Shown: piece after piece, positions 5,796 to 59,829 of the stretch
How positions within the stretch are numbered: the stretch's first letter is position 1
How the letters are laid out: the number at the start of each line of letters is the position of its first letter
Source of the DNA: Raja brachyura
Lineage: Eukaryota
Direction: 5' to 3'
Assembly (NCBI GenBank): GCA_963514005.1
Contig: OY740793.1
Location: forward strand, 26,474,001-26,538,000
DNA length: 64,000 bases
Position numbers and translations under genes: made by a program
Notes under the pieces: generated by a model
Seen by the model: the letters and a program-made list of their open reading frames with translations, nothing else
Told to the model about the DNA's origin: nothing
Databases searched by the model: none

Positions 5796-5987
5796 CGGGC
5801 TCCACCCTTCCTTGGTCATACGATGCCAGCCCTGATTTGTTCTGGCCTTTTCTTACCTCCAGTTCCCTCTCCACTACTTTCAGTCTGAAGAAAGGTTCCG
5901 ACCCAAAACGTCACCCATCCCTTTTCTCCAGAGTTGTTGCCTGACTGACCTGCGAAGATACTCCAGCACTTTCTGTCTATCTTTCTG
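5796..5987 (+). mobile_element. Penelope-derived 3' end unit with degenerate hammerhead core
   Basis: CTGAAGAAAGGTTCCGACCCAAAACGTC at 5885-5912 followed by the family tail; flanked by the 9-bp direct repeat CATCTTTTA (5787-5795, 5988-5996). Confidence 0.75.
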
Positions 5988-6799
5988 CATCTTTTATTAC
6001 TTTAATTTAGTTAATCATTTTGCTTATATACATGTGTTTGAGTATGATTCAAATATTAAATATTAGTCACACATACATCACTGGTAAATGAGAAAAAAAG
6101 ACATTTTCTAATAACAGTAAAAACATGTATAAAATTTGCAGTGTGTTTTATACGATAAAACTAATCCGAGTTCAGTTAAAATGGTAATTAAATTCCTAAA
6201 ACTTAGCAATGAAATGATAACTATGTTTATAAAGCATGCAAAATATGCACGTTATTAGAATTATCTAAACGGAATATCAACCAATTCAAGTTATAATCTT
6301 TTTTTTGTCACTACAGCAGTAGTAACAGCGGAGCTCTTTGACATGATGTGAAGTTGACAAGTTCCTTTTGAAGAAGGATATGGCCATTTTAAATGAAGTT
6401 TAAAGGGGTCAGATCCAAGATTTAAAAGGGCAATGCAGATCTCTTCCAGTAATAGTGTAAAATAGATTTTACTTAGAACTTACTCTTCAGCACAGTTTTT
6501 TACCACACCACTGAAATTAATATTTATTTGGGGAATTTTTTTTTGGTTGCAGATCAGATATTATGTTTTAAACTAGAATTAATATTTTGCGCATTTTTCA
6601 GAGTACCATAAATTATTTATTTCGGCTCTGTTCCTGACATCGTACTTTAGTTCTCTGACCCCAATTAGACATGCCTGCGCAACATGTTAGCACTAACAGT
6701 GTGACAAGTCTGAGTGTATTAGAAACATAGCAGTGGAACAGTGATGACACTTGGGGGGCCAAAAAGGATACAAGTTTCTGTTTGTCATTCTGTCTGACT

Positions 6800-7420
6800 T
6801 GATGGTTCATTCTCAATTTAACTTTATCTTCAGCTGTCTTTTATCTTCTTTCTGTGTGTACGCCCCACATGCCACTGGCACACTCTCCACATTTCTCTCT
6901 CCAATATTACCGTTTTCCACTTGCAGTATGTGTTCCTTTCTCTCCTCTTCTCTTTGTTGTATTTCCTCCTCTGTCCACTTTGCTTTCTCCCATGCTTTTC
7001 TCTTTTAACTTTTCATTTGTCTTTAATTCTTCTCCCCATTGCTCTCTCTCTTTGGTTTCTTCTGTTGGGGATTCATTCACTGTCACTTTCCCCATGTTGT
7101 CATCCCTTCCCTTTGATTTGCTCTCCCATTTAACATACAGGTATTTTCTCATTCTTTTGATTTGATTCTGATGCTTTTCAATTCACTTTCTCAGTCCTTT
7201 TTATCGTGTGCTTTTTTATTTCTCATTGATCGCCTCATCTCTCATGAATTCAGATTTGTGTCACTAATATATTTTTTAAGATCTTTCCCTATCCCTTTCT
7301 GTTCCTGTTTGACAAATTGTGATTTACTTTCATTGACAGCCATTTTCATATGCATGCCCTCTATTTTTATCTTCCTGACCCCCAATCTTCTGTTTAGCTT
7401 TAATTCCTGCACACCCTTCA
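6800..7420. repeat. Pyrimidine-rich low-complexity tract
   Basis: Strong T/C bias on the + strand; overlapping ORFs are F/S/L-rich artefacts. Confidence 0.6.
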
Positions 7421-7477
7421 TTGTCAATAAACTGTGTCTCCAGACAATACCATCTCAAATCCATCCAATGCTATTGG

Positions 7478-8100
7478 CAGCATTGTGGCACTGCAGGTAG
7501 TACTGTAGGCCTACAACTCAAGACGCCTGGATTCATTCCTGACATCTGGTGCTGTCTTTATCAACTTTCCATATTCTTCTAGCGACTGCATTGATTTCCA
7601 GTGGATGCAGCAATTTCCTCGTAGTAATAAGTTCATAAATTCAAGGAGCAGAATTAGGCCATTCGGCCCATCATGTCTACTCCACCAGTCAATCATGGTT
7701 GATCTACCTTTTCCTCTCAACCCAATTCTCCTGTTTTCTCTCCATAACCCCTGACACTCTTACTAATCAAGAAACTGTCAATCTCCACCTTAAAAATATC
7801 CAATGACCTGGCTTCCACAGCCGTCCGTGGTAATGAATTCCACAGATTGTTCTAATTAGTAGGTTATTGTTATTAGCCATATGATTTAGATTCAGTGCCG
7901 ATAGTGATATTTTTCCCTTTTTGGGTAGTGTGTGATCTGGTGGGAATATCCCCTATATATGATCCATAGTGTATGTGGTTAGAAGAATTAGGGGGATTGC
8001 TGGGCATGTGAGAAATATTAAGTTACAGGGAAATAAGTGGGGGAATGGGATTGTTCTGAAAGGCAGTATTGATTTGATGGGCTAAATGGCCTCTTCCCTG
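7478..8100 (+). mobile_element. Degraded HE1-like SINE interrupted by an antisense CR1 3' end (~7625-7847)
   Basis: SINE head (..GCCTGGATTCATTCCTGACATCTGGTGCTGTC) then an antisense CR1 tail (GGAGCAGAATTAGGCCATTCGGCCCATC..GAATTCCACAGATT); SINE-like sequence resumes and ends GATGGGCTAAATGGCCT. Confidence 0.55.
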
Positions 8101-8417
8101 TGAGAAATATGTTACTCACCAAGGTACTTTGACAACACTTCCCAAGCTGCATCCTATCACACATATCGACAAATAGCTCCTTCCTATGAACACCACCACT
8201 TGCAGTTTCCCTCCAGATTGCACACTATCCAGAAAGGGAAATATATCACTATTGGCACTGACTAAATCGTATAGCTAATAACAACACAGACAGAGGCATT
8301 CCACCTTTTGGTTCCGTATCCACTCCCAGGGTATCATTCCAATTTGTTCCTTTTGTCTTTTCCTTACAACTTGTTCTCTCTCATCAACTTTGCTTCGATT
8401 CTTTTTGCCATTTAAGT

Positions 8418-9378: not shown

Positions 9379-9764
9379 ACAAGGAACTGCGGATGCTGGT
9401 TTACACAAAAGGATACAAAGTGTAGGATGGAAGTGCAGATGCTGGTTTACACCGAAGATAGACACAAAATGTTGGAGTAACTCAGATTGTCTGAGGAAGG
9501 GTCTTGACCTGAAACACCACCCATTCCTTCTGTCCAGAGATGCTGCCTGTCCCGCAGAGTTACTACAGCATTTTGTGTCTATCTTAAAGGGCAATAAGTG
9601 CTGGAGTGACTCAGTAGGTCAGCTAGCAACTCTGGAGAACATGGAAAGGTAATGTTTTGGGTCGGGACCTTTCTTAAGACTGAGTGATCCGAAACATTAC
9701 CTTTCCATGTTCTCCAGAGATGCGGCTTGACCCGCTGAGTTATTCCAGAACTGTGTGGCTTACC
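9379..9764. mobile_element. Composite fold-back Penelope-derived unit with 14-bp target-site duplication
   Basis: Two head-to-head arrangements of the family repeat; GGGCTTTTGAAGAA at 9365-9378 and 9765-9778. Confidence 0.8.
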
Positions 9765-10308: not shown

Positions 10309-10319
10309 CATTGGGGGAG

Positions 10320-12999: not shown

Positions 13000-13162
13000 G
13001 TTACAGGGCGGCGGCGTGGCTGCGCAAAGAGACTCCGGGGAAATCTCAATTTCTTCACCGATCACCCCGACAGATATAACTGGCCGCTGTTTCTCCCCGT
13101 CCCCGAGATCGTCCGGGAGCAAAGGGGACGGCGAGAGCTTCCGTAACTAATAGGCCCTGAAG
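13000..13162 (+). other. Candidate non-coding first exon B (start approximate)
   Basis: Strong donor GAAG|GTAAGA at 13162/13163 followed by a G-rich intron start, typical of CpG-island first exons. Confidence 0.55.
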
Positions 13163-13392
13163 GTAAGACTGTACCGGGAGTGGGGTGGAGGGAGAGGAGG
13201 GGAGGGGAGGGCGGGTGGTGGTGGTGGCGGCGGGGGAGAGATCGTGGCTTGCTTTGTTTCTGCTACTGCTGATGGCTTGGGGATCGCAGGCTAGAGGGAG
13301 AGAGATTGGGAAATGCATGCAGCGCAGTTGGCCGGGAAGCGCAGCGCAAGGGTGCGAGTTGCGAGCGATCCCTGGGCAGGCAAGCCTCCGCT

Positions 13393-13396
13393 CACA

Positions 13397-13431
<35 letters not shown>
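13393..13431. repeat. (CA)n microsatellite
   Basis: CACACAAACACACACACA...CACACGCAC. Confidence 0.95.
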
Positions 13432-13432
<1 letters not shown>

Positions 13433-15361
13433 GATCGCGAACCGCCTGCCTCAGCCAGCAACACCCGATCGCGATCAATGCCCCTGCTCACCCGCAGAGC
13501 TACGGAGCCACAGGGACAACTCTCACAAGTTTGACTGTTCAATACCAACCCAGCACTTGGCACGTTTCTTTTCAATGTATGGACCAACTTCGGCCTCCTG
13601 AAAAAAAACACTGCAGTTTTTTGTTTTGAAATACGACCTAAGCAACTTCATAGTTTAGAATAATGTTAGATAGCGCTGGAAAATTCGGATTGTACAAAGT
13701 TGTGAGAATGTCGCTTGCTTCCTCCCGAGCCACCCCCCTCTTCCTCCCCCATCCCCGCCCCACACAGACATCCAAGCCACATTTGGGGGCGAATATCTCA
13801 GCGATTTCGGGCATCGATCCGATAAACTCCGAATCGATACTGTCAATCTAAATAAAAAGTTGGCGTTAAGAGGGCCGGAATCTCATGAGTGGGAGAGTCG
13901 AATGAATGGATCGGACAAATGAGATTTGACGTGCAGGAACGATGTTATCTCTTTTGTGGGGAGTGTACTGTACAAAGAGCAGGACTGTTCAACCCACATC
14001 ACCATACCCCAAAGAGGAACCTTCCATTTTTGTTTTACTGTACTGGCTCATCAAGGTCACAGGTTGAAGCGTGTGAGTGGGCTCAATGGCAGGATGGCGA
14101 AGTGAGCATTGAGTAGTAAAATAGTGAGGGGTTGTATTGTAGGCAGAATAGCAGATAGTGGGGATAAATTACTAGATGGTATTTAATCCTCTGGTTCCGA
14201 TGACGACATAAACTGGGAGAGTCAATTAACAGATATTAACAGACAGTGAGGATTGAATAGGTCCGCAAACTCATCCCTGGCAGATAGTTCCTCGCGTGTG
14301 GAGCATATTTGTGTGTCACCACGCTATTATTTAGGAGTTTTCCTACTCGGAGTTCAATCGATATGCAGTATTGGAGAGGGGGTAAATTAAACGCTAAGAA
14401 GCAGTAAGAATATTCGCCACCTAATATTGCATTTGCAGCAGAAAAGCTGGGAAAAGTTGCAAATATACTGCAGTTTGGTTAGGATCTCGAAAAGAAAAGA
14501 TGGATAAGAATTCTGAACAGGGAGCCTTTGCCAGAAAAGTTTGCTGAAGAATTCACAACTGCAACTTTTTGGGTCATGCCACATTTGCTGTCAGGCTTCT
14601 TATATATGTTTTTTTGCAGCCACTCTAGAATTTATTTTATGTTCATTCACTGTAAATGTGAGCCTCAGTTTTTTCTTTTAAGTTTGCAGGCCGAGTAAAC
14701 TATGTATGGGTCTCTGGTCATTGTTTTCATACTCCTGGGTTCTTCTATCACAAATGCAAAAGAGAATGCCTAATGTCTTAAAGCAGAAACATAGGTTTCT
14801 GTTCATTAGGTCCATGAAACATCCTGGATGAAGATGTTTAGCTATATTCTGCTAAAGTTATAATGATAGGATTTGACCATGAACACAGTGTTATAAATTA
14901 ACTAATTTTGTACATCCAGGATGTTCTTGCGTTGTTAGTAAGTTCAGAAAAAAAACCCTAGACTAAATAACATGTTGTTCACTCTGTATGCTTACTAGTT
15001 TAACATTAATTCCGCTAGCTTTAAAAAGAATTTTCCAAGTTCTGATGTTTTAGCATTTTCGTGTCAGATGCACCACCTTGCATGATAGGATAGATAGACT
15101 TTCATCAGTTCCCAACTGTCTGACCAGATATTGGAGCTTGTGGCATGGATCCTCACAGGCTGATGAACCTGGCTTTCCAACTGGTGTGCAGTGGTGACTG
15201 AACTGAAATAACTGCAGATTATTATAGAGAAAGGTACATTCATAAAGCAACTTTCATGCCAGCAGGACAAATAAGATTTTGTAATTTAAAAATATAATTT
15301 AAAGATACCATACAGATCAAATTTGTAGGCAATTTGTGATCAGATGAAGGGATTGAACTAG

Positions 15362-18020: not shown

Positions 18021-18035
18021 TTTAAATTTTTAATT

Positions 18036-18158
18036 GAAAGATACACATGGAAACCGGCCCTGCTGCCCAACAAGTCCACAAGGACACAGATCACACTAGC
18101 TCTGTTATTCCACTTTCGCGTCCACTCCTGAGACACTAGGAGCAACCTACAGAGGCTG
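18036..18158 (-). mobile_element. 3' part of an HE1-like SINE split by the DIRS insertion
   Basis: GAAAGATACACATGGAAACCGGCCC..CACTAGGAGCAACCTACAGAGGCTG joins 22724 onward to rebuild a SINE like 43864-44137. Confidence 0.75.
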
Positions 18159-19499
18159 ATTTTACTTCGGAGTCACGTGAGTGACTACGTGAAGACCCCG
18201 CCAGCACGCATGCGCGACATATCGTCGAACGCATTGCGGAAGCGACAGTCGGGAGGAGCGCCGCTCCTCCAGCGTAAGTTTTTGAAAAAACTACCAAAGG
18301 TAAGGCTTACCATTTCTGGTGAGCATGGCGACTCGGTGTTTCTTTGTGTTCCAGAGAAAGCGCCATGGAGTCGAGAAAACACAGGAGAGCAGCGGCAAAA
18401 TTCACTGCTGTGGAAAGCAGCCAGCAGCGTGCCGTCTCTCCGGAGCTGCAGGTGCTACCAGCAGCCCCCGACTTCTCGCCGCAACAGACCGCAGGTTCGC
18501 CGCGGTCCGCCGGCAAAACCACCCGGAAGTCGGACAGGTCCGTTGCCTCGGCGGGACCTGAGGACACCCCGTTCGTGGTTAGCGACGGCGGTCGTCTTTC
18601 CCGCATGGAGCGGATGGTGGAGCAGTTGCTCCAGCGTGACCTGCTTATGCAGGGGCAGAATCACAGTGGGTCTCTTCGCAGACCCACGGCAGCATCCTAT
18701 CAAGGACTGCCAAATGTCTCGCCCTCTTCGCAGGGGAGCATTAGGGGTCAGAGCTGGGCTGACCCTGAAGAAGGGGCAATGGCTGAAGAGTACCTGTGTC
18801 AGGGGTGCCAGAAGAGTTGTAGGCATGGGTAATAAACATGCTGTACCAACCCAGAGAACTGCGTTTCTCTAAATGTGCCTGCAGTCAACAACCCATCTGG
18901 GGCAACATGAGCCCAACTACAAGGAGCCAGGAGGTGAAACTCCAGAAAATCCTTAAACTGCTGACTGCTGGTATTACAGCAGTGGCCAGAACAGCGATGG
19001 GGTTGAGATGCCTGAAGAGCTACTAGACGCTCCAGCACTCCTGTGCAATACTCAATTCAGATTTACAGCTACAGGAAGAGCATCATCAAGCCTGCACTCA
19101 ATCCAAAATTGCGGGATTATGCAGGACTAGCAGCACACAGCCGCCAACTTGCTGTTTGGGGACTACCTCCCGAAACAGGTAAAAGACCTGGATGAGGAGG
19201 CCAAGGCTATAGGCCTGATCAAGGTACCAAACACCACCAAAACCCATTATCAGCAGCGGCAGCACCCCTACACATCCACCAGACATCGTTATAATGAGAG
19301 ACCATCTGGTGGTGAAAGCTCGAAGGCCGGCCCACCTGCACAACGGTCTTTTTTAGACCATGGCCCAGCCCGGCCTTCTTGGAAAATGCGCCAACCCCAC
19401 AACGCAGCAACACAATACACGAAGAAACAAGGACAGAGACAACCTACACAACACCGGTAACCTTGGAGGTAGGTGGGTCTGGTTGTCTCAAAAAACATT

Positions 19500-21240
19500 G
19501 CTGCCTAGATTCATCAAGGGTTGGTGGACGATTGCACTTGTTTCATCATGTGTGGAACACTCTTACCTCTGATCCTTACATACTCGGAAGTATTCAGGGT
19601 ACTAATTGAATTTGTATACGAACTTCCCATCCCAGTTCAGCATACGCCCAGCCGAAAGTTCATATTTTCACAAAAGAGAGAACAGCAGGCCATGCTGAAC
19701 TGTTAAGACTAAACGAAAAAAGGGTAATTGAGAAGGCAATCCGAATCTCAAGAGTTCGTATCAAATATTTTTACAAAAACAAAAAAGATGGCGGATGCCG
19801 CAACATTATAGATTTGACTGAACTAAATACTTCCGTTCAGTATGCCTATTTCAAAATGGACACGTTTGTCACAGCCAAATAGCTAATTTCTGATAGGTAC
19901 TTCATGGCTTGCATCAATTTAAGGATGCATACTATTCAGTGCCAATACACAAGGATCATCGGAAATATCTAAAATTTGTCTGGATGGGACAGCCTTGGCA
20001 GTATAAAGCCTTACCCATTGGGTTGTCATCGGCACCCAGGCTGCTTACAGAATTGTTAAAACCAGCTTTAGCATAATTAAGGAAACATAACCATATTGCC
20101 ATGGTTTACCTTGACGATATTCTCATTGTAGGTGAGAATTTGGAGATGGCTACATTGGCAGTATCAGCCACAAAACATATTTTTAAAAGCTGGGATTAAC
20201 ATACATCCAGATAAATCAAAAAATGAAACCCTCCACTACCATGGATTATCTGGGGTTCACTATCGATTCTGTTCAAATGTCTATCACCTTGCCACCAAAC
20301 AAAGGGACAGACTTGACGGAAGCATGTAAAACCCTCACTGGCACCAGGGAACCATCCATTCTGCAAGTAGCCAGAGTGATTGAGAAACTAGTGGCTGCAT
20401 TCCAGCAGCACAATTTGGACCACTCCATCACCAAAACCTGCAAAGAGCAAAAATTCTAGCTCTTAAAAATCATGCGGGCCATTTTGATAGGCCTATGAAA
20501 CTACCAGAGAAGCTAAATTAGAATAATATTGGTGGATAGAAAATGCTCAGCATTGCTCTAACCCCATCACTATCATGAATCCGTCGGTTACATTACAGAC
20601 TGATGCCAGTGCTAAAGGTTGAGGAGCAGCTAATACCACCACTAGTTGTGGTGGCAGATGGAGTGCACAAGAATTAACCCTGTTGGGAGCACTAGGGATT
20701 AATTATCTATAAATGCTGGGAGCATTTCATGGACTCCGGGCCTACTGCTCAGATATGCACCAGTTGCATGTACGGTTACAAATTAATAATACCACAGTGG
20801 TGGCCTATATTAATCATATGGGTGGAATAAAATCGATATCATGTGATGAATTGGCTAATTACATCTGGCACTGGTGTCTGGATAGAGAGATTTCGATCTC
20901 AGCCACTTACCTTCCAGGTAAACTAAATACGGTGGCGGACACCAGGTCATGCAATTCAACGACAACATTGAATGGATGTTGGATCGGGACCCGGGGCCAG
21001 CAGCGATGGATGCTTCTCGCTGCATTGGGGGGATTGTTTTGCTATGCATTTCCCCCCTTCTGCCTCATCAGTCGGGTCTTACAAAAAATTAAACAAGACT
21101 CCGCAACGGGTATTTCGGGTTTCCCGACTGGCCTACCCAACCATGGTCCCCAGCAGTACTAAAGATGGCCGCAGAACACTGCTTTCGGATCCTCAAACGG
21201 CCGAGCCTGTTGGTACACCCTGTGACGGGTAAGTCATCCG
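19500..21240 (+). pseudogene. DIRS RT / RNase H / Dam-methyltransferase-like ORF, frameshifted
   Basis: DAYYSVPIH, YKALPIGLSSAPR, MVYLDDILIVG (20101), LQTDASAKG*GA (20593), INNTTVVAYINHMGG, YLPGKLNTVAD, YAFPPFCLISRVLQKI, PDWPTQPW. Confidence 0.9.
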
Positions 21241-21252
21241 TGCCATGATCGA

Positions 21253-22230
21253 ATGAACCTATTGATGCAGATTCTGAACAGGCCATTTCTGGACTACGGA
21301 CTCTCCGACAAGACGATCAATGTCATCACAGCGTCGTGCATGGAGTCCACCAGAGACAGAACTGACATATGTCAGAAGATGGGAGTGTTCTGCTTTAGAA
21401 CAAACACTTCATATGACTCGGCCATCATCACTGAAGTGCTGGAGTTCTGGCCACCCTTCATTCCATGAAGGTTTGAGCTACAGTGCCATTAATTTTGCGA
21501 GGAGTGCCCTATCTAATAACCTGGGCCGAGGGAGTGATCACCTGCCTATAGGATCACACCCACTGGTATCTAAACTGATGAGGGGTATTAATTCTATTCC
21601 CCCAGGGCCAGATACACCCATACATGGGACTTAGGCATAGAATTTACTATGCTTCGAGGATGGACACCAATATCGGGGCTCACTCTGGATAAACTAACAT
21701 ATAATATGGTTATGTTTATGGCACTTGTAACAGCACAACGGGTCCAGTCCTTACAAAGCTAAGTATGGATGCCATGTGTTAACCAATGGTAGATAACATT
21801 TCTGATACAGGGGTTACTCAAACTATATCGACCCAGTTCCTCTGGCCAAAAATTATCATTCTGGCCTACCCTGAAGATAGTCGGCTCTGCATTGTGACAT
21901 ATATTTTACGATATAGAAGGAACCAAGAATCTAGGGGCACGGAGAGGACTTTACCCATAAGCCACAAACGCCCTCATCATAAGGTCACAGTGCAAGCCAC
22001 TTCCAGTTGGTTAAGGGTGGTATTGGGTGCAGCGGGGATGGACACTAATGTTTTAAATCTCACTCCACCAGGGCTGCATCCACATCGGCGGCTAGGATGA
22101 TGGGAGTTCCTATGGACCACATCCTTGCTACAGCGGGTTGGAGCAGTGAACGAACTTTTCAGCACTTCTATTATAAACCCGTGGCCGCTCCTGAGATGTT
22201 TGCAGGGGAAAATGTTAAGTTCTGTTACAT
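21253..22230 (+). pseudogene. DIRS tyrosine recombinase ORF, frameshifted
   Basis: GLSYSAINFARSALS, GSHPLVSKLMRG, MALVTAQRVQSL, FKSHSTRAASTSAA..ILATAGWSSERTFQHFYYKPV (22052-22183), giving the R..HxxR..W..Y catalytic set. Confidence 0.9.
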
Positions 22231-22723
22231 GATTTACCCAATGTGGGGCATATCACTTTAGTTATGATTAAATACCTTCTTTGTTTTTCAGCACAGTATC
22301 ATGTCTGAAATACGTTCATCCTCCATCCCTAGCATGGCAGTGTGTGAGCATGGACTCGTTCCAGGGCATGAACTCACAGAGCTTTGAAATCTTCACGTAG
22401 TCACTCACGTGACTCCGAAGTAAAATAGTAAGATTAAATGAGAACTTACCAGTTTGAAGTTTGATCTTTATTTTATGAGGAGTTACGATGAGGGATTACG
22501 TGCCCTCCGCTCCCAAACCCTCTATTATAAAGTTCAACTGGTATATAAAGTTCTCTCTTATCTTACTATGTTAGTCTACTCTGGTATCTGTGATTTCACA
22601 CCACTGCTTTGAAGAATGTCGCGCATGCGTGCTGGCGGGGTCTTCACGTAATCCCTCATCGTAACTCCTCATAAAATAAAGATCAAACTTCAAACTGGTA
22701 AATTCTCATTTAATCTTACTATT

Positions 22724-24274: not shown

Positions 24275-24390
24275 AGACCCGAAACGTCACTCATTCCTTC
24301 TCTCCAGAGATGCTGCCTATCCCGCTGAGTTACTCCAGCTTTTTGTGCATATCTTTGGTTTAAACCAGTATCTGCAGTTCCTTCTTACAC
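24275..24390 (+). mobile_element. Penelope-derived tail unit (partial hammerhead 3' half)
   Basis: GAGACCCGAAACGTCACTCATTCCTTCTCTCCAGAGATGCTGCC..AACCAGTATCTGCAGTTCC. Confidence 0.75.
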
Positions 24391-24979
24391 ATTAATTTTG
24401 ATACCTTCCGTACATGAGGGTATTAACTATAGGTAAAGAAAAAACTTGAATTGTTATATGAATTGAGAGCTGCACTTGCATTATAGACATTTCTAATGTC
24501 TAATTTATAATTCTTATTGATGTGCATTTGAAATTATGATTCCAGGTGATCTGTGCTAGAAACTTGAGGTTCTGACCTTGAGAGGAATGGTTTGTGTAGG
24601 CTAGGGAGATGGAGATTCAAGTGGAGAGTTCTAAGGTTTCCCCCACTTGATCCCTGTCAGAGATTCACCCTGATGGAACATTTTTGCTGGGTAGTGTTGC
24701 AGCTCCGGAAACCCTCCATATTTCAGTTGGCGGGTTTCCTGGGGCCAAGATTAAATCTGCAAATTAAATTGGAGGCTGCTGGCCCCATAATATTTCAATA
24801 ATTCCTTGGGAGTGGTTTGTCTTCTCTTGTCATGCCTTTGTTAAACTTGTAAATGGATAGATTGTGGTTGTGTTTTTAATTTTAAGATTTTTTTTTTTGG
24901 TGCCTGAAACATGTGCTTTTCACTTCAATTTGTTGTTGAGAAGATTGTGGTGAGCTGATCTTTTTGAACTGTTGAACTG

Positions 24980-26070: not shown

Positions 26071-26968
26071 AACCATTTTTCAGGAGTTACATTTCATTCC
26101 CAAATGTAAGTGAGCTGAAAACCACAAAGGATACTGAGTAGTTTTCTGACTGAGATATTTGAAATTGTAACCCTGCAGATGTTAATGCTTGAATTTACCA
26201 ACAGATATATATATGGTTTGATTTGGGAAGATTTTAGTTCATTTAAGGGGAATTTTAAGGGAAGTGAAAAAAGATGTATATATCACAATTAAATTGTATC
26301 TCTGTGGAGCGATAGCAGTTTTAATAAAGAACTTTTATTTTGTTCTTCACGCATCTGTTTGCAGCATAACTCATGTTTCTCCCTTCTAAATGGGGAAACG
26401 GTGTACAACTGATTTAGTTGAGCAGTACTGTATTTTTCTGCCATATCCAAAATAGAATCTCAATTCTTATCTATGGGTACAATCAATACATTTTAAAACA
26501 AAATACGCTGGAAATCTGAAATAAAAACTGAAAATGTGTCAGGCAACATCTGTGGAGAGAGAAACAGTTTATGTTCTGGATTGATGATGTGTTATTGACC
26601 TGAAATAATAACTGTTTTTCTCCTGAGCTGCCAAATGCTATTGTTTGCAGGCGAAAGATGGTAATTTTAATTAAGAGAATATTTGTGTTTCTTGTGCTCT
26701 ATCACTCTGTTCCCTTCTTGGTGAAATTTTCTGGGTGAAGTATCTCCTTAGTTTTCTTTCAACCTTGGAGTTGCAGTGTACTGCTTGTCAAGCACATCCC
26801 ATTTAACTGCAATACTGTTTCATTAAACAAGAACATTAAAGAGTATACTTAAATCTTTGGAAGTTTTAAAACATAACCAGGGTACAAAATAGGATCATCT
26901 ATATATGCTGCCTTACGCTCTTAAGTTAATGCAGCACTTTGTGTCCTTATTAGGGTACAAACTAAATA

Positions 26969-27855
26969 CAGTAAGCCTTTGTTTTAATGGACTCCTTTCA
27001 CCCTGGCTCCCACCACCTACCCATGCCCTGCTTCCGACACCACGCCCGGCTCGCAAGGTGCCTCAATGAGCCCTTCTTGACTTGCAGTACGGTCCGTTGT
27101 TGCAGTTCACCTTGTAGCCCCTGGGGAGAGCGCTTTCTTCTGGACGCCGCTGCAGACTGTGACTCGGTCAATGTGGGCCCCCCCCCACACCTCTCACCAG
27201 CTGCCGCTTGTTTCTGTTGGCCGGTCGCTTAGTCCACTCTGCCTTCCCCCCCTCCCCTCATCGCTGCCTCTTCTTACTTCTCCTGTCACTGTCCGCTCAG
27301 CCTCTTCTCCCACCCCCCCCCCCCCCCCCCCTCCCAACCTTTCTGCTTTACCCCCGGAGTCACTGGCATACTCAACCTTGGAAATGTGGAGCAGACAAAG
27401 CAATGGCCAACAGGAAAAAGGGAAAGCTGGCGAGAGAGGAGGGAGCCCCACGGTTGGTGGAAGTAGGTGGTGGGAGCCAGGGTGAAAGGAGCCCAACGCG
27501 AGCCGCAACAACAGCCACCTTAGTCCGACTGTGCAGCAGCGGGAGAAGATGGGCACGCTGGCGCAGACCAGCGGCATCAGCACCTAGTAATGAGGTGAAA
27601 CAACACAAAGTGCCGGAGTAACCCAGCAGACTGAAGAAGGTTCCCGACGTCACATGCCCATGTTTTCCAGCGACGCTGCCTGACCTGCTGAGTTCCTCCA
27701 GCACTTTGTGTGCTTTTGTGTATTAACCAGCATCTGCAGTTCTTTGTTTCAACTATGTACAATGTTATGCCTTACTCGATTACAGCAGACAATCGGCAAT
27801 AATGGACACCACTCCCCCCCCCCCCCCCATGACCCGTTATAATGAGGATTTACTC
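26969..27855. mobile_element. Tigger/pogo-like non-autonomous DNA element with GC-rich interior and nested Penelope-derived unit (~27600-27750)
   Basis: TA|CAGTAAGCCTTTGTTTTAATGGAC ... GACCCGTTATAATGAGGATTTACTC|TA are degenerate TIRs with TA flanks. Confidence 0.5.
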
Positions 27856-28090: not shown

Positions 28091-28735
28091 TCAAGTCAAG
28101 TCTATTCGTCACATACACACGGGATGTGCAGTGAAATGGAAAGTGGCAGTGCGCGCGGACTTTGTTCAAAAAAACAAACAAACAACCAACAAACTGCTAA
28201 CAGAATGGAGCAAAATCACATGTTCTTTTACATATTAAATATTGTGGGTGGTATTGAGGTCCAGTAAAGTTAGTCCCTGGTGAGATAGGAGTTTACAGTC
28301 CTAATGGCCTCTGGGAAGAAACTCCTTCTCAACCTCTCCGTCCTCACAGCATGGCAACGGAGGCGTTTGCCTGACAGTAGCAGCTGGAACAGTCCGTTGC
28401 AGGGTTGGAAGAAGTCTCCCATTATCTTATTGGCTCTGGAGTTGCACCTCCTGATGTATAGTTCCTGCAGAGGGGTGAGTGAAGTTCCCATAGTGCGTTT
28501 GGCCGAACGCACTACTCTCTGAAGAGCCTTCTTGTCCTGGGCAGAGCAATTCCCAAACCAGATTGTAATATTTCCGGACAAGATGTTTTCCACAGCCGCT
28601 GAGTAGAAGCACTGGAGGATCCATGGAGACACTCTGAATTTCCTCAATTGCCTGAGGTGGTAAAGGCGCTGTCTTGCCTTACTCACGAGTGCTGCAGCGT
28701 GTGATGTCCGTGTCATATCCTCAGAGATGTGGCTG
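28091..28735 (-). mobile_element. Rex1/Babar-type LINE 3' end
   Basis: ORF 28270..28863: VSKARQRLYHLRQLRKF..FYSAAVENILSGNITIWFGNC..KALQRVVRSA..LFQLLLSGKR..RLRRSFFPEAIR; (GACTT)n tail. Confidence 0.9.
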
Positions 28736-29610: not shown

Positions 29611-29631
29611 TTATCTGAATTTGTGTTAAAG

Positions 29632-34112: not shown

Positions 34113-34199
34113 ATGTATGTAAACATTATACTCGGTAAACCCCATAATAAACAAAAAATATATTGTTTTTAAATTAGACAAATAAATAAACAATAATAG

Positions 34200-36112: not shown

Positions 36113-36380
36113 CGGCAGCGCAGTATCTCATCTGCTATGAGTGCCAGAGACACGGGATTGAATCTGACCTGGGGCACTGTCTGGGTGGAGTTTGCACATT
36201 CTCCCTGTGACCGCCTTGGTTTCCTCCGTGTACTCCAGTTTCCTCCAGATCTAAAGGTGTACGGATTTGTGGGTTAATTGGCGTCTGTGAAATTGTTCCT
36301 AATATGTAGGGAATGGATGAGAAAGTGGGATAACATAGAACTAGTGTGCATAGATGAACTCAGTGGGCCAAAGGGCCTTT
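36113..36380 (+). mobile_element. HE1-like SINE
   Basis: GCCAGAGACACGGGATTGAATCTGACCTGGGGCACTGTC..GGAGTTTGCACATTCTCCCTGTGACC..GTGGGCCAAAGGGCC. Confidence 0.75.
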
Positions 36381-39300
36381 TTGAACAGATAGTGGGATGG
36401 GATGACCCTGAAAGAACAGGCATTAGTTTCTGTATAAAGTGTCATAAAACAGGGAATGATTGGTGGAAACGGAAGAGGAGATTAGTGGATTGTGAACAAT
36501 GTGATCTCATTAAAATGTTAAGAGGAGGGGAGGAGAATATCGTTATGAAATTTTGTTGGAGCTGATGGATATTGTGTGGGATCGTTCATTTTCATTTTCG
36601 CAATTTATCTGCTCTTTCTCATATAGATTGGAGATTTTTCCATGTATTTATCTGGTGTCCTTCTGAAAGTTGTTACTGGTTTTTTAATCTGACCCCAACT
36701 CCAGGATCTTTTCATTACAGATTTTATAATCACGCCAGAAACTATTTTTTCACTAGAATATTTTATGTTTTAACCGGCATAGAATAATTTAAAAATGATA
36801 CAGAATGAGGCATTTTCGCCTCAGTATTTTCATGCAAGCAGATTGGAGCTATTTAAAATAATCTCACTTCCAAGCCTTCGTTCCATAATCCTTTGAGATA
36901 TTAGATACTCAACTGGGTATCTTTTGAAAATATTGTGAGGGTTTCTGTCCACCTATCTTTGAGACAAGGAGGTCTGAATCTCCATCATTCTTCGGGTGAA
37001 AGAAACCTCTAATCCCTCTAATTATTTCACATTTAGGAATCTTGTCTAATTTCTGAAGATTTTCTTCAATGAACGAGTTTTATCTTCCTCATTGTAATCT
37101 AGAAGGACCGGTTCATTAAACAAGCCTACTATATTACTCTCTTGTACTTATGTATGTTTGTGGCTACGTATTTAGATATTTACCGATCTGTATGTAAAAA
37201 AGAAATTTCACTGCGCCTTGGTACATGTGACAATAAAATACCATTGAATAATTGTTAACTATTTCACAAAAGCTAAAATTATTATGGACGCACCTTGGGG
37301 CTCGTATTTTATGGCTGGTTATACAAGTTCAATACATAATATGCACCGTCTTTCAATTCAATTCAACAATTTGCGCTGCTTACACTATTTTGCACTGTCA
37401 AACGATATCCCATACTAATGAATGTATTGACTAATGAAAATAAACAAATGGTGTAATTTTAAAAGCAAGAAATCTGGGGATGCTTACATACTTTTTAATG
37501 GTGACATGACATATTGAACAGGCTGCTTTAAAGGATTTATTAATGAAGGCAGAGATTACAAATGCAAGTAAATCACTCATTCACTTTGTTTCATTAGCAG
37601 CCATTTATTTGTTCTCCAGTTAATGATACTTCTGTCTTTGGATTCCTATTTAGTTCAAGAAAATCCTTTCTAATTTTAAACATCTTGATCTAATCTTCCT
37701 TTATTTGATCAAAGTGAAGTTGTTCATCCCTGGTACCAATCTCATAAATCCCTGCACTTTATAGACTTGGTTTTTGACCTCAACAAGAGTATCCAAGTTT
37801 GACACAGAGTAAAGAAACGTATATAATTACCTGCCATTTTATAAGTACATTACAACCAATACATTTGCATCATATCAAAGTTGTGTAAGAAACATGTCGG
37901 CCAACTTGCACATAAACAGCTACAAATAGTGATGCAATGACTATTTCCTTGTATTTTGTGATTAAAAAGAGAACATTCTGGAAGTACCTTGCAGACCAGG
38001 AAGCATCGGTGGCTGGTAGTTATCACAAGAAACTTTTCATCAGAATGAACTATTTTGTGGAATGATTCAGGATGAATATTGACCAGAACAGTAAAAATAA
38101 CTATCTCTCCTACTATATTTTGATCAATACCTTAGCACCTGTTATCTCCACCCAAAAGGTGCATATAGAACCTCATCTGAAAGCGACAGCATTGTGTACT
38201 CCCTCAGTATTGCATTCAATGTCTGTTTTGAGTAGGATTTCAATCTATTAACTTTCTAGTTAGGGCTTAACCAGTGTATTATTTTTCCAATGATGTAGCA
38301 TAATTTACTTTTATTTCTGACTACATTAATAAACACATTATTGAACTTTTTCAATATGTCAATGTGAAATGTCAATGTAAATGTTCAATGTAAAATGTGT
38401 ACAAATATTTCTCGGTTTCCTTCTTTTAAAATTATCCAATGTTACTGGTATAACTGTTTAGCAGAATGATGGATGGTGTAAACAGCCCAAATCAACATAT
38501 TTACATTGAAGTAGGACTGAAAGATTGCTTGTTAGATGATAATATACTGGTTTGGAAAATGATAGAATTTCTTCCAAGTGACACCTAGGTATTCTTTAAA
38601 GGTCATAAGATCATGCTTACTGCTGAGATTAGCAATTTGGCTGCTGCCCTTTGCATGCTTCCGTTCCTCTGGATTTAAAGGGCATGTGCTGCTCCGGCCA
38701 TGCACAGCAATGCCCTCGTTGACCGATATTTATACTTGCAGGCTCCTTACTTTTAAGATGCAACAGCATCAGAAATTGTAATAGCCACGTGGTGGCATGT
38801 TGTGTCTGTAACTATAATGCTTTCTGTTGCAATAGCATTGCATTGTCCTTCCTGCCGTCAGAATCTGTCTGCCTATAGAGGGAGCTAGCTAACAGTGCTT
38901 GCAGTCTACCTCGATATATTTCTCAATTTGCAAACATTTGACGTACAAATTTTTGCTATGATCCCATTTAATCTTTGAGGTCACTTTTTGCTTTTACCAC
39001 GTAAGACGCCATTCTCTGCATATAGAGATAGTATAGGAATGCTTAAAATGCAATTTACCCTGCGTTTTGCTGCATGAAATTTTACTTTAATGAAACTTTA
39101 CCCATGGTATCCCTTTGGTAAATCAATGAATTGCTATGATGTAGGCACACTAAGGAAAATTACGTTTTCTTCCGATAATATAACGCAAGGTTAGAACTGT
39201 TCTTGTTTTCTGGTGATACATTGGAAAGAGTTAGTGGAGACAGGACAAGTGATTTAAGTGCTGTGATTATTAACAAAAGTAGTAGTGGAGGAAAAGCGTT

Positions 39301-53169: not shown

Positions 53170-54170
53170 AGAAACAAGGAACTGCAGATGGTGGTTTACA
53201 AAAAAAAAAGAGACAAAGGTAGGCACACAATGCTGGAGTAACTCAGTGGGACAGGCAGTATCTTTGGAGAGAAGGAATGGGTTGTTCAGTGAGACAGGCA
53301 CCATCGTAGAAGATGGATGGGCGATGTTTCGGGTCGGGATGCCTTTGACTGAAAAAGGGTCTCAGCCCGAAATGTTACCCATTCCTTCTCTCCAGAGATA
53401 CTAGCTGTCCCGCTGAGTTACTCCAGCTTTTTGTGTCTCATCTTCTCTAGAGATGATGCCTGGCCCGCTGATTTACTCCAGCACTTTGTGTCTTTTTACA
53501 TATAGTGTGTTGGTGATGGACGATGTGAATGTTTAATATGATCATTAGGGGAGCAGTCAAGCCGGTTGCTATGTTGTGGATGATGACCATGGGACTGACC
53601 CTATTGGCTTTTCTTTATGTGTAAGAAAGAACTACAGATGCTGGTTTAAATCGAAGGTGGACACAAAATGCTGGAGTAACTCAGCGGTGCAGGCATCATC
53701 TCTGGAGAGAAGGAATGGGTGACGTTTCGGGTCGAGACAGAGTGAAGAAGGGTCTCGACCCGAAATGTCACCCAGTCCTTCTATCCGCTGAGTTACTCCA
53801 GCATTTTGTGTCCACCTTTGATTTAAACCAGCATCTGCAGTTCTTTCGTACACAAGTGGAGAGTTTCCTTCGCAATCTTTAATTTGTTTTACCGAGTCGA
53901 GGCAAATAATGCCTCGATAACAATATTGCTTGTAAAAGCTTTCCTTGAGCATGCCTGACGTGTTTCAGTTTTAATAAGAGCTGCCATCTGATTTCCACAG
54001 ATCGAATTGAAACTGAACGTTCGAACCTACTCGGTTCTCGCACGAAAGATAGACACAAAATGCTGAAGTAACTCAGCATCTCTGGAGAGAAGGAATGGGT
54101 GACGTTTGGGTCTCGACAGCATTTTGTGTCTATCTTCGATGTAAAGCGGCATCGGCAGTTCCTTCATACA
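53170..54170. mobile_element. Cluster of three fold-back Penelope-derived units (~53170-53495, ~53627-53848, ~54045-54165)
   Basis: Repeated AAGGAACTGCAGATGCTGG..GGAGTAACTCAGCGG..TGACGTTTCGGGTCGAGAC arms facing their reverse complements. Confidence 0.85.
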
Positions 54171-54249
54171 CACTCGGTTCTCACACTCCTGGCATCAAGC
54201 GAGGGATAACTGATGTGTGGGTGTTGTAGTTTATTTAGCTCTTTTGCTG

Positions 54250-54720
54250 GTTGACAGCTACTCAAATGGAGGGAATACGAACTACAAAACCCAGAATACC
54301 TTTCGCCCGCCGGCACTTGCAGACTGTCCTGCCAGTCCCTGCGCTGCGCTGTCCCTTCGCCCGCCGCCGCCGCCAACTTTTTTTCCGTGCACTGCATTGT
54401 GCGCGGAGGTAACGCGCCGGTCCTCGTGTCATTGCCTCCTTCTCCCTGCTCTGCCACGCCGGCGCCGCCGCCGGGGGAGAGTGAGAGCGTCCGGGCGGCT
54501 CAACGGCCGCGCAGGGCGGATGGCGGCGGCGGCTGGGATCGGTTGGCGAGCGGGCGCGAGCGGCGACTCGTGCGGCTCCCTCGCGTGCCAGTGGGCGGGG
54601 CCAGCGGCCGGGCATCGAGGGCCATTTAAACCGCTTGCGCTGGTGGCGGGCTGCAAGAGCGGAGCGCTCCGCTAAATAGTAGGGGAGGAGGAAAATAAAG
54701 AATCAATAGGTGTCAGCCCC
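54250..54720 (+). promoter_or_regulatory. CpG island promoter (putative proximal BCORL1 promoter) with ZNF143/THAP11-type motif
   Basis: Very high GC and CpG, (CCG)n, GC boxes; ACTACAAAACCCAGAATAC at 54281-54299 resembles the ACTACAnnTCCCAGnATGC promoter motif. Confidence 0.8.
54320..54408 (+). other. Candidate non-coding first exon C (start approximate)
   Basis: Donor GGAG|GTAACG at 54408/54409 just downstream of the ACTACA motif. Confidence 0.5.
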
Positions 54721-55217: not shown

Positions 55218-55400
55218 TCTGAATAAGGGTGTCTGAAGAAGGGTCTCGACCTGGAACGTCACCCTTTCTCACCAGAGATGCTGCCTGTCCCTGCTGAGTT
55301 ACTCCAGCTTATTATGTTTATCCTGATCCAAAATGTCACCATTCCATATTCTCCAGAGATGCTGCCTTGTCCGCAGAGTTACTCCAGCATCTTGTGCCTT
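55218..55400 (+). mobile_element. Tandem Penelope-derived tail units
   Basis: GTCTGAATAAGGGT GTCTGAAGAAGGGTCTCGACCTGGAACGTCACCC.., then a second tail copy from ~55322. Confidence 0.75.
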
Positions 55401-56277: not shown

Positions 56278-57010
56278 ATACGATACGATTTAATAGAACT
56301 TTATTTATCCCAGGAGGGAAATTGATCTGCCAACAGTCATAAAAACACAAAATACATGAAACATGAAATTAAAGTGATGAGTGGAAAGGCTTGGGGCAAA
56401 GATTGGGAGGGGGGGGGGGGGGGTAGGAGTCAGTCTCAGTCTACCCCATAGCAGAAGGGAAAGGAGTTGTAAAGTTTGATAGCCACAAGGAAGAAGGATC
56501 TCTTGTGGTTTTCTGTCCTGCATCTTGGTGGAACTAGTCTTGCTGAACAGACAGCACAGAACATCAGCATAGTAACAGACCATTCAGCTGTTGTCTTTAA
56601 GCTGGCCATTAACGTTTCTACACTGATCCCATTTTTTGTACACATTTTCCATCAATCACTACCCAGTTTTTCAGCCACTTGCACTTGGGATAATTGAGAC
56701 ACCATATCACTAGCATGTCTTTGGCATAATAATAATAATAATATCTTTTATTGTCATTGCACATAAGTGCACACGAGATTTGGTTTGCAACTTCCATCCG
56801 ATGTCATAACCTACCAGCTAATAAAATTTTGGATTAGATACCCCAAGAACATGGTTTGTAAAAAGAACAGTAAAACAGTCAAAACAGACTAAAGTGCAGA
56901 TGTGTCTATGCGATGTGACCATCCGAGGGAGACAGTCCATGGGGGTGGGGGGCACTCAGCAGGGCCGGTTCAGACCCGCTATCGCTCTGGGAATGAAGCT
57001 GTTCCTGAGC
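56278..57010 (-). mobile_element. Two Rex1-type LINE 3' ends (~56278-56545 and ~56727-57010)
   Basis: PPRCRTENHKRSFFLVAIKLYN; RNSFIPRAIAGLN; microsatellite tails (ATACG)n and (AAT)n. Confidence 0.7.
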
Positions 57011-57406
57011 ATGTGGGGAAACCAATGATTCTGTGGGAAACTTACATAGTCCCAGAGAAAACGTGTACACTCAACCTAGACAGTGTTTGAGTTCTTGCAT
57101 TAATTGAATCAAAAACACCAAACAGTTTGGGTGAAATAACATCAATAAAACAAAAATTTTAAAGTAATAATTTAAAAACGTCTGTTAAAAAAAATGTATG
57201 CTATTAATTTTCATTGAAGAGAAGACCTTTCCCATCAAATTCTAGTTAACTTTGATGCTATTTATTAGAAAACATTGGATATAAAATAATGTATAATACT
57301 ATTCACGTGTTCACACTATTCAAACTTTAAGGGAAGTACTGTACTTTATTTTCATAAGCCTGCCCCCTGGTGGTTGAATAGAAAATCAAACATTCTTGTT
57401 TCATTG

Positions 57407-57634
57407 CAGAAACAAGGAACTGTAGATGCTGGTTTATATTTAAATAAAGACACAAAGTGGTGGAGTAACTCAACGGGTCAGGCAGCATCCTGGAGAACAT
57501 GGATAGATTATATTTTGTGTCGGGATCCTTAGTCTGAAGAAGGGTCCAAATCTGAAATGTCATCTATCCATATTCTCCAGTGATGCTGCCTGACCCGCTG
57601 AGTTACTCGAGCACTTTTTGTCTTTTTTTTTATG
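57407..57634. mobile_element. Fold-back Penelope-derived unit with probable TSD
   Basis: Inverted arms around CTGAAGAAGGGTCC (57534); CTTGTTTCATTG (57395-57406) versus CTTGATTCATTG (57635-57646). Confidence 0.8.
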
Positions 57635-59829
57635 CTTGATTCATTGTCCCAAGAGTGGAAATGCTCCTGTCCAATCCTGGAGGTAAGATCACAAATCTTA
57701 ATAATGGATTTCTATGATGGAAATGCATACCATGTGAATTTTTGTTAATACTCACCATTATGGGTTGCAAACACCTTACCTGATTTTGAAATCAAGAACT
57801 CCTGTGTGATAGCTGAAATACATGTGGTTAGAAATTAACTACTGGAAGCTATAAACTGTTAATGCATAATCTGACAATGTGAAAATCCCGTCTGAAAGCT
57901 ATGTTTTGAATGGATTAGCGAAAAAATGGCAAATTGTATGTTCAGTATTAAAATGTTTGACTATTTCCAGATTATAGGTAAAGCACAAGATAAAGGAAAA
58001 TAACTCATCAAATTGATTGAACCATTGTATAATTTACACCAACCAATGATGCAGAGATTATTTGTTGGAGGATACGTCTAAAATTGTTGTTTTTTTTACT
58101 GTCTTCGTGAAATGCATTCTGGTGCAAATTCAGGAGCCGTGATCTTTTTTGTGTTTCAGCCTTTTGCATTTGCCAGCTTTTGTTCTATGATTTACTTTTC
58201 AGAATGCTGCTATTTTTGCCTTTATTTTTAAACATTACTTTTGACAGAAAATATTTATATCTCAATTATATGGCATTAATTAAGCATAGCATTTGCTTAG
58301 TCCTGTTGCAGGGTTTTGATCCGAAATGTCGACAGTTCCGTCCCTCCTCTCCCATAGATGCTGCATGACCCACTGAGATCTTCCAACAGTTTTTTTTATT
58401 TTTCCCTCATTTTCGGCAATTGCAATCTCTTATGACTCTAGCATACGTTTTGGTTGACTCTAGTTTGAGAATGTGTTACTTTTCTATTAATATACTGGAA
58501 ATAATATCAAGAGAACAAATCTAATAAATTGTTATTGAAGCTAAAAGACTTCTACATAAAGGGAAACACATTAATCTATTAAAAGATCCAGAAAATGTGC
58601 AATGTATTAGTTAGCAAATAGGAAAGAGTGTTTTTATTTCGGCAAGTATACAGCAAATATAAAGGAAGCTTTTTGTACAGAATATTGATCTATGTTTTAC
58701 CTTTGAAGATATTGTTTGGTATACTTTGTGTATTCAATAATTCTTTCCTTTTGTTGTTATTTTTTGCATTTGTTTTTCCTTTATGAGAACTTAGTAACTT
58801 TTATTCAGACACCATTTTACTATTTTCAGCTATTTGAGTGCATGATCAACAGTGCAACAAATCACTTGTTAGCAAAATTACCAATGTGCTTTGATTGGCT
58901 CTTTATTCATGAATGATCTGTAATGCAACCAGCCCAATTCTTTCACAATTTTAGGGTACAATTATTGGCACTACTATTGTTTACAATTAGTTTCATTGCT
59001 ACTCAACAATCTTTTAATATTTTCTATTTATTGTAATAATTTTAGATGCAGAACATTGGTAGAATTTTATAGTGAGTACTTACATATGTCATCGTGCATT
59101 TATGCAGACAATTTTCTTTGATTGCTCGCACCGTCGTCAATGAAAATGTTTAGGATATGAGTTGTACAGATATCTTGACATTCCGTTTTGGTGGAATATT
59201 GAGGGATGAGTAAAACCAGCAGCCAATACTCTGATTTGTATAGCCATGAAACCCTAGATTAATTTATCGCCCACTGCTTTTTCAAATGTTTTGCATAGAA
59301 AGTGGTTTAGTGCTTTATATCTTAATTGGGTGTTACCTACGTTAGGAATATGTTGCTGAATATTTTCTTGGGCTGGCAGTGTAGTTTGCCAACCAAAATG
59401 TTACAGCCTTACATCGGCCTTGCTGAAACAACGAGGTCAATGTTTCCACAGAAAGATGTAATTGTATTGGAGAAGGTGCAGTATTTATTTACTAAAATAA
59501 TTCCTACATGAGGCAGCTGTCCTACATGGAAAAATTGAGCATATTTGTTTACTGGAATTTCTATGAATGAAAGGTAATTCCTATTGAGAAAAAGTTATGA
59601 GAAGTAATGGCAGGGTAGGTGCTGAAGGGCTATTTCCTCAGGTCTTTGCCCATTCTGACAGTCACAGGATCACTACATTTTTGCAAGAGCGAATACTTTG
59701 GATAATTGATCTATAAACATAAGTGACATTATCTTCTTCAGGATGCACATTGTTCATTGGAAATCCCTTAGTCTGCAATCAGAAACTAGATATAATGGCT
59801 TGCAGAGATTCTTTCACTTAGAGGGAGAC

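Follow-up and report, generated by a model that had tools for sequence, protein, structure and literature searches.

The question raised by this locus is whether a set of short repeats bearing a hammerhead ribozyme motif forms a mobile family in its own right or belongs to a larger element. The locus is a stretch of 64,000 nucleotides from Raja brachyura (GenBank assembly GCA_963514005.1, contig OY740793.1, positions 26,474,001 to 26,538,000 of the forward strand), the whole of which is called the window below. An initial annotation had proposed a high-copy, non-autonomous, retrozyme-like family mobilised by the reverse transcriptase (RT) and GIY-YIG endonuclease of Penelope. Our data indicate that the units are very probably the 3'-terminal 90-130 nt, that is the pseudo-long terminal repeat (pLTR) ends, of Neptune-type Penelope-like elements (PLEs), and carry the minimal type I hammerhead usual for such retrotransposons. 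The whole reading that we favour, with a probability of roughly 0.55, is that on these ends two oppositely primed complementary DNAs (cDNAs), copied from uncleaved RNA, annealed at the hammerhead.

The unit ends both coding copies in the window, and the short units therefore share their sequence with the 3' ends of the coding elements; a separate non-autonomous family is not needed. In a tblastn comparison with RT and endonuclease proteins, remnants of both tile 33637-35494 (plus strand) and 33405-32876 (minus strand), and frameshifts or stops break both copies. In each, the coding remnant is followed by a pyrimidine-rich untranslated region (UTR) and then by the unit. The first copy (E8 in our numbering of insertions; 32592-33386, minus) is 5'-truncated and is inserted in the hammerhead of an older copy of subfamily D, of which the left half (32556-32591, plus) holds a CUGAUGA-type core at 32562 and the right half lies at 33400-33451 (plus). 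E8 consists of a frameshifted thumb and linker with a CX4CXXC motif plus GIY-YIG at about 33405-32876, a 3' UTR of about 190 nt and a hammerhead at 32681-32654, and it is flanked by a 13-bp target duplication. The second copy (E10, 33637-35870, plus) is decayed: what is left of its RT and endonuclease, at 33637-33920 and 34198-35494, is spread over several frames and contains stops, and is followed by a 3' UTR of about 285 nt and a hammerhead at 35783, without a tail. The annotation was thus right that both coding copies end in the motif, and exact for the limits of the first, while the second begins at least as far back as 33637 and not at 34200.

The assignment to a clade is based on the CX4CXXC linker, which lies upstream of GIY-YIG in the frame at 33025-33420 (minus); the Pfam GIY-YIG match of this frame is weak (E=0.0019, below the curated cut-off). 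Neptune and Nematis are marked by a CX2-5CxxC linker between RT and GIY-YIG, which Penelope/Poseidon lack (PMC8557442), and the linker therefore places the copies outside Penelope/Poseidon. Judged by their sequence, the coding copies are Neptune-type, although the linker alone does not separate Neptune from Nematis; among the vertebrates sampled by Li et al. 2026, only the Neptune and Poseidon clades are present (10.64898/2026.07.22.740005). The Penelope source named at first is consequently correct as to PLE proteins but not as to clade. The best named protein relatives are from Hypanus, Mobula and Leucoraja (rays and skate), which supports an elasmobranch host. Further features are those of endonuclease-bearing (EN+) PLEs: RT followed by a C-terminal GIY-YIG, 5' truncation with partial-tandem (E11, E14) or inverted pLTRs, and an optional tail of 30-40 bp that is mostly present at one end.

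Two older Neptune-type endonuclease remnants, at 35896-36116 and 46832-47458 (minus), have no recognisable hammerhead end. A UTR upstream of the hammerhead common to the subfamilies was not apparent, as no alignment rose clearly over shuffles (one C-rich pair scored 39 against a shuffle maximum of 36). We also considered the unit as the N-terminus of the element's open reading frame (ORF), as in PAc, the Poseidon element of Anolis carolinensis, and found no support for it. The 43-aa translation matched three short proteins at differing positions, by eye the peptide stood at the start of none of 10 longer relatives, and the stop counts (17/784, 21/783 and 44/781) single out no frame.

In what follows, positions in the unit are numbered from C3 of the hammerhead as +1, with cleavage predicted after +28 and the 3' product from +29; an arm is a single copy of the unit, and an event is a single insertion holding one, two or more arms. 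The 30-mer given in the annotation has no exact match in the window and four with at most three mismatches (shuffles expect 0.00). A profile from 15 window copies gave 32 matches at E<0.05, compared with one match (E=3.9) in the reversed window, in a search that is partly circular as its training set was window copies. One arm divided by a nested insertion was merged, and strongly decayed possible members at 26538-26581 (minus, E=0.004), 26905-26960 (plus, E=0.0002) and 37966-38012 (minus, E=0.2) were left uncounted. The final set is 29 arms in 17 events, 15 of them short and 2 coding, and together the arms make up 2,724 bp, or 4.3% of the window; at least four subfamilies (A, B, C and D) are represented. 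The high copy number claimed for the family is borne out as a high local density. All 17 sites quoted for the motif do fall on family arms and on the strand given; however, the CUGANGA box is entirely missing from three of them (24277, 53325 minus and 53720 minus), the core at 27630 has lost GAAA by a 7-nt deletion, and 12 arms, mostly opposite-strand partners, had been overlooked. No tRNA-derived head of the unit was found, and a tandem repeat scan of the window gave no tandem array of it.

The motif consists, in order, of a stem I of 2-4 bp, CUGAAGA, one extra A, a stem II of 4 bp with a tetraloop, GAAA, a CG palindrome (15.2-16.2) occupying the place of helix III, and UC or UU. This order of elements is that of the minimal type I hammerhead of metazoan PLEs, for which cleavage is predicted, in agreement with the core assigned at first. 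A strict descriptor of the minimal hammerhead finds three sites in the window (29777 plus, 29751 minus and 57534 plus), as compared to a mean of 0.04 and a maximum of 2 in 200 shuffles, and the same three are the only ones of the 13 arms spanning +1 to +28 in which the 11 core bases are all intact. The extra A after A9, which the annotation had singled out and which we take to be known from a viroid hammerhead, is indeed present. It is not special, being a consensus trait of metazoan PLE minimal hammerheads, and the base between 9 and 10.1 resembles that of some canonical hammerheads (PMC4209133). The old subfamily D has the CUGAUGA-type core, with an AUG at 32562, and the younger subfamilies have CUGAAGA. 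Directly before the core at 5881-5884, 32682-32685 (minus) and 35779-35782 stands a pyrimidine tract with CAG, resembling a splice acceptor. It is found in all three A/B copies with native upstream sequence. The 5' ends of the arms might accordingly mark such an acceptor, but the short copies share no exon sequence beyond -4; in Drosophila virilis Penelope, an intron end maps to helix I (PMC4209133).

Evidence for selection on the hammerhead core is modest, and neither of two conservation tests is decisive. Mismatches to the subfamily consensus number 7/139 in the core and 129/1351 at other non-CpG positions (p=0.088), a comparison that is weak because inserted copies decay neutrally, and the 19 fixed differences that distinguish subfamilies A, B and C all lie outside the 11 core columns (p=0.057). 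Over 13 copies, in a 39-nt stretch picked around the motif, 86% of cells are paired (96% in stem II, 72% in stem I), a level reached by 21 of 500 shuffles, and the covariation score is reached by 28 of 500. Two-sided changes occur at three pairs of stem I and at none of the four of stem II, where variation is confined to one side. Structurally, stem I changes most clearly, from U-A in A and B to U-G in C and to C-G in the D copy at 58303, and by eye the second D copy at 32562 has the same stem I pairs as the latter.

None of the nine Rfam matches of the window at E<=5 is to a hammerhead family and no match reaches the gathering score, as would be expected for a motif without helix III; weak matches to microRNA precursors merely reflect hairpin shape. 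A covariance model of the 13 copies revealed no further full hammerhead family in the window among 30 matches at E<=5, of which 13 were the training copies (best non-family match E=0.11). Energy models give the hammerhead fold no edge (-9.4 for the fold at 29777 plus, with a minimum of -9.6), and dimers fold otherwise. For a PLE-type minimal hammerhead without helix III, cleavage is to be expected only in a dimer or with the help of protein.

The outer ends of the units are informative as to how they were inserted. The 3' ends fall in two classes, at about +90 and about +128, and the 38-nt extension between them, seen in 11 of the 28 ends looked at, is the PLE tail; in PAc, the tail likewise lies between two RT start sites (PMC11167929). 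Head-to-head hairpins make up nine of the 17 events, and among them the tail is found on exactly one arm in seven, on both arms in one and on neither in one. Target duplications of 9, 14, 13, 15 and 12 bp accompany 5 of 16 events tested, with scores of this kind in 9 of 1500 random intervals. In E2, E13 and E15 the duplication encloses both arms, and each such hairpin is therefore one insertion. The inspected flanks show no apparent (TA)n target preference. Across the hammerhead, hairpin loci fold at -91 to -201 kcal/mol (four loci, both strands); the modelled transcript of such a locus is one long duplex, and the intact cores of E7 and E15 would therefore be unlikely to fold as ribozymes.

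Short, dense and palindromic hairpins, whose shape is also what the microRNA-precursor matches reflect, could in principle be miniature inverted-repeat transposable elements (MITEs), transposed at the DNA level by a transposase for which the arms would be the terminal inverted repeats. We regard this as scarcely credible, given that seven of the nine hairpins have asymmetric ends, that the length of the target duplication varies from event to event over the five values above, and that the arms are the ends of RT/GIY-YIG elements.

The individual hairpins illustrate this variety. E2 (9379-9764), a hairpin of subfamily B, lies within a perfect target duplication of 14 bp; its minus arm (core 9679) has a tail and is divided by E3, and its plus arm runs from +16 and has no tail. 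E3 (9423-9585) is a subfamily-A hairpin with a minus arm from +65 to the tail and a plus arm from -2 with its core at 9491. E5 (27602-27751) joins a short minus arm from +62 to a tailed plus arm from -4, which holds the core at 27630. The decayed subfamily-B hairpin E6 (29484-29600) is joined at stem II (+18/+9), contains a G-rich filler and has a tail on neither arm. E7 (29629-29869), the youngest hairpin and a member of subfamily C, has arms identical at 88 of 92 positions, two intact cores (29751 minus and 29777 plus) with a UUCG loop and a GUU site, and a tail solely on the minus arm. E11 (53172-53494) is a composite A/B hairpin with partial tandems, its minus arms starting at +29 and +7 and its plus arms at -2 (core 53349) and +40. 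E12 (53618-53853), of subfamily A, has tails on both arms, which are identical at 93 of 99 positions, the minus arm starting at +11 and the plus arm having its core at 53742. E13 (54044-54171) is joined at a 5-nt overlap of stem II, has an internal deletion and is enclosed by a target duplication of 15 bp with one mismatch. E15 (57409-57634), of subfamily B, has a 12-bp duplication with one mismatch, a tailed minus arm from +7 and a plus arm from -3 with the intact core at 57534.

The events other than hairpins and coding copies are all on the plus strand. E1 (5796-5987) is a solo 5'-truncated end without tail (core 5885-5912), preceded upstream of the hammerhead by about 89 nt of pyrimidine-rich sequence and flanked by a 9-bp target duplication (5787-5795 and 5988-5996). 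E4 (24276-24391) is a solo arm from +16 to the tail end, lacking the CUGANGA box, and E9 (33981-34113), also solo, extends from about -4 to the end of the tail and lies within a non-coding interruption of E10. E14 (55219-55400) is a partial tandem in which an A arm (from -2, core 55233) precedes a B arm that begins at +15 and has no CUGANGA box. E16 (58298-58392) is an old subfamily-D copy with a decayed core at 58303, in which stem I is different and still paired. The insertions of E8 in the hammerhead of the older D copy and of E3 in an arm of E2, the position of E7 about 30 bp from E6, and the mixing of subfamilies within E11 and within E14 show that the family also inserts into itself, in line with a report that PLEs tend to go into or beside earlier copies (PMC6765202).

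The 5' starts of the 29 arms lie in 11 cases at -6 to -1, in 10 at +7 to +18, in four at +21 to +70 and in four far upstream. Twenty-one arms thus begin within the 26 nt at the hammerhead (-6 to +20), at a rate of 0.047 per nt as against 0.003 per nt in +21 to +70 (binomial p=9e-10). These counts bear directly on the retrozyme-like model, in which the hammerhead would cut the RNA and PLE proteins would put it back into the genome after circularisation. The hammerhead motif itself is real, the core positions hold no fixed subfamily difference, animal retrozymes come from PLE pLTRs and occur in one chondrichthyan (10.64898/2026.07.22.740005), and in the window there are partial tandems (E11, E14) and one arm that starts exactly at +29. 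However, the other 28 arms start elsewhere than at the cleavage site, head-to-tail pairs of complete cores are absent from all 17 events, and the 64 kb hold no tandem array of the unit. Moreover, the unit ends are PLE RT start sites with no permutation at the cleavage site, and the motif is of the minimal PLE type and not the canonical type I of retrozymes (PMC7229834). The model is therefore very unlikely to apply, and within these 64 kb the family behaves as a PLE end and not as a retrozyme.

The hotspot stretch contains two inverted repeats. Positions -6 to +5 form a self-complementary 11-mer, TTCAG-T-CTGAA, in both A/B copies checked with native upstream sequence, and stem II (+9 to +20) is the second. 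An arm starts at -5 to -2 in seven of the nine junctions, and most junctions fit a palindrome that has its centre at -1 and a short deletion there, E13 being the 5-nt stem II overlap. This fit would also be given by a non-autonomous hairpin master of 220-260 nt centred on the 11-mer and copied whole by Neptune proteins, the junction differences being later tip deletions; the junctions of E11 and E15 are nearly alike (+7 joined to -2/-3), and the preponderance of short over coding copies would follow. On the other side, subfamilies A, B and C all include hairpins, whose tail is on the left arm, the right arm or both, no two junctions are identical, and both outer ends are RT start positions, which is unlike a single pass over a hairpin RNA. 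We consider such a master quite unlikely.

The same inverted repeats would allow a hairpin to arise from the same element ends by self-priming, with one cDNA or an antisense template folding back at the 11-mer palindrome or at stem II. Fold-back has been proposed for inverted PLE junctions in a rotifer, where junction palindromes were so interpreted (Arkhipova et al. 2013, PMC3846280). Private variants common to both arms in E7, E12 and E15 are in line with it, and the 11-mer could pair with itself over 4 bp around a 3-nt loop. A fold-back that starts from the tailed arm makes a prediction on the centre base of the junction, which was compared by eye in six events: E2, E11 and perhaps E7 fit, E3 is ambiguous, and E5 and E15 fail. 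Fold-back alone also does not account for the end of the second arm being the other RT start site, and we hold it to be improbable, if less so than a hairpin master.

What has to be accommodated is that the units are identical with Neptune-type ends, that there are two 3' ends, that inverted pairs are single events and that the junctions have a hotspot. Annealing of two cDNAs, which we favour, would do so as follows. The GIY-YIG endonuclease of the element would nick both target strands, 9-15 bp apart, and RT would prime on uncleaved sense RNA at either of the internal starts (about +90 and about +128), giving one cDNA per strand. Both cDNAs would mostly stop or switch upon reaching the hammerhead, and their ends would join by complementarity, through the 11-mer (-6 to +5) or through stem II (+9 to +20). 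The outcome would be a head-to-head hairpin with the tail on one arm and a few tip bases lost afterwards. Such copies would be dead on arrival, with most cores decayed and the ribozyme of a hairpin locus locked in a long duplex. In vitro, the PAc protein works with uncleaved RNA and both cuts and extends the two strands, and PAc hammerhead mutants insert normally (PMC11167929); that 25 of the 29 arms pass through the cleavage site fits the latter observation.

Several points weigh against this reading. The junctions are decayed, their boundaries were read by eye, arms of the same event are not independent and tip deletions shift boundaries, and the p value of the hotspot therefore overstates its certainty. 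The boundary at -4 of solo copies may be merely the limit of alignable sequence, because upstream regions do not align between subfamilies. E7, of subfamily C, has no sign of the 11-mer, yet both of its arms stop at -2. The partner arm is top in identity in four of the nine hairpins and ranks 3rd to 27th elsewhere, and 11 of the 16 events are without a clear target duplication. The covariation in support of the fold is weak, as described above, and the in vitro data are for a Poseidon element and not for Neptune. It is tempting to speculate further that the main function of the hammerhead region of Neptune RNA in rays and skates is not cutting but giving reverse transcription a stop-and-join signal, and that it has filled the genome with hairpins of about 200 bp, a possibility that we find doubtful on balance.

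The window contains other elements besides this family. A decayed element at 18100-22723 (plus) has frames resembling gag, RT, RNase H and a tyrosine recombinase. An inverted repeat of 79 bp lies at 22424-22723, and an inverted match of 62 bp links 18159 with 22677. The element is presumably of DIRS type, and the pieces of it that were tried gave no Pfam match. The remnant of a Tc1/mariner-like DNA transposon at 49708-51312 has terminal inverted repeats of about 160 bp and a Pfam match to a transposase helix-turn-helix at 49993-50430. Other elements that are palindromic or have terminal inverted repeats, without relation to the hammerhead family, lie at 62277-62622 (MITE-like, with 113-bp arms), 7867-8284 and 4081-4652. 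At 41628-43407 lies the remnant of a long interspersed nuclear element (LINE) with an RVT_1 match at 41628-42173. In the region 28270-28896, the frame 28270-28893 (minus) matches Pfam ALKBH8_N, which we take to be the C-terminus of a LINE RT. Islands rich in GC and CpG at 13000-13500 and 54160-54700 may be host promoters or first exons, and a 700-bp direct repeat (45191-45890 and 48075-48773) has 75% identity.

As regards the ribozyme, these findings add little, since minimal hammerheads of PLE ends are known in fish, coelacanth, frogs and reptiles and are now extended to a ray or skate. Their possible value is mechanistic, bearing on how PLE insertion is completed, how inverted ends originate and what the hammerhead does. 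Clustered junctions, one-sided tails and enclosing duplications make the models of annealing, fold-back and a hairpin master separable by counting young copies. The long hairpins would be candidate sources of double-stranded RNA (dsRNA) where transcribed. If the stop-and-join speculation were true, the genome would hold a genome-scale natural record of PLE 5'-end joining and a large source of intronic dsRNA. If the window is typical, a genome of 2-3 Gb, which we assume for the host, would contain on the order of 10^5 intact minimal hammerheads. With a different descriptor, 4,000 minimal hammerheads are reported in coelacanth and 9,000 in Xenopus (PMC4209133), both far fewer than this estimate.

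In the literature covered, outside which lie Repbase and Dfam, either of which might include its consensus, and most subscription papers, no description of this family in elasmobranchs was found, and the parts consulted of PMC5680766 add nothing on such elements in sharks. The novelty suggested for elasmobranchs holds to that extent, but Li et al. 2026 already count hammerhead retrozymes in one chondrichthyan (10.64898/2026.07.22.740005). Like the animal non-LTR retrozymes (PMC7229834; 10.64898/2026.07.22.740005), the units are non-coding, PLE-related and of type I, and dispersed monomers exist there as well. Active animal retrozymes are, however, tandem repeats derived from PLE pLTRs with at least two consecutive complete hammerheads (10.64898/2026.07.22.740005), that is head-to-tail with a complete hammerhead per unit, and give circular RNAs, an arrangement seen in none of the events here, and the canonical hammerheads of retrozymes are set apart from the minimal PLE type (PMC7229834).

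The closest match for the motif is the set of metazoan PLE hammerheads of Cervera and De la Pena 2014 (PMC4209133), with which it shares CUGANGA plus the extra base, G10.1-C11.1, the palindromic 15.2-16.2 without helix III, a short helix I (2-3 bp in other species) and the pyrimidine-rich 5' flank. There, too, most motifs are single dispersed ones of truncated PLEs, with opposite-strand pairs 100-700 bp apart. No chondrichthyan row was met in Table S1 or Fig. S3 of that paper, and compared with its set the ray stem II is short (4 bp and a tetraloop) and the motifs are dense, with three descriptor sites in 64 kb. As for the parent element, the Neptune and Nematis EN+ PLEs of Craig et al. 2021 (PMC8557442) likewise have RT, a CX2-5CxxC linker plus GIY-YIG at the C-terminus, heavy 5' truncation, partial tandems, an inverted 5'-truncated copy and a tail of 30-40 bp usually at one end. 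In the ray, by contrast, both arms are usually truncated at the hammerhead, and the whole insertion is a hairpin of 130-390 bp.

PAc (Frangieh et al. 2024, PMC11167929) is comparable in that its hammerhead lies about 110-150 nt upstream of two tail-defining RT starts, its own pLTR can be the target and its insertion substrate is uncleaved RNA. It differs in belonging to another clade and in that its ORF starts at the hammerhead, while in the ray CUGAAGA of subfamilies A-C is without AUG, which is present only in the D copy at 32562. The Penelope elements of the rotifer Adineta vaga (Arkhipova et al. 2013, PMC3846280) also show head-to-head inverted pLTRs, a palindromic inverted junction, an optional tail, target duplications of 8-10 bp and solo pLTRs. 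Unlike the ray family, they are of low copy number, and the sections consulted state no tie of junctions to the hammerhead. Dispersed minimal hammerheads of truncated copies, opposite-strand pairs, inverted pLTRs, junction palindromes and tails are accordingly in print for PLEs. A clustering of junctions at the hammerhead was not met in the parts of the PLE literature covered, and this hotspot, together with the density of the family, makes up the less ordinary part of what the window contains.

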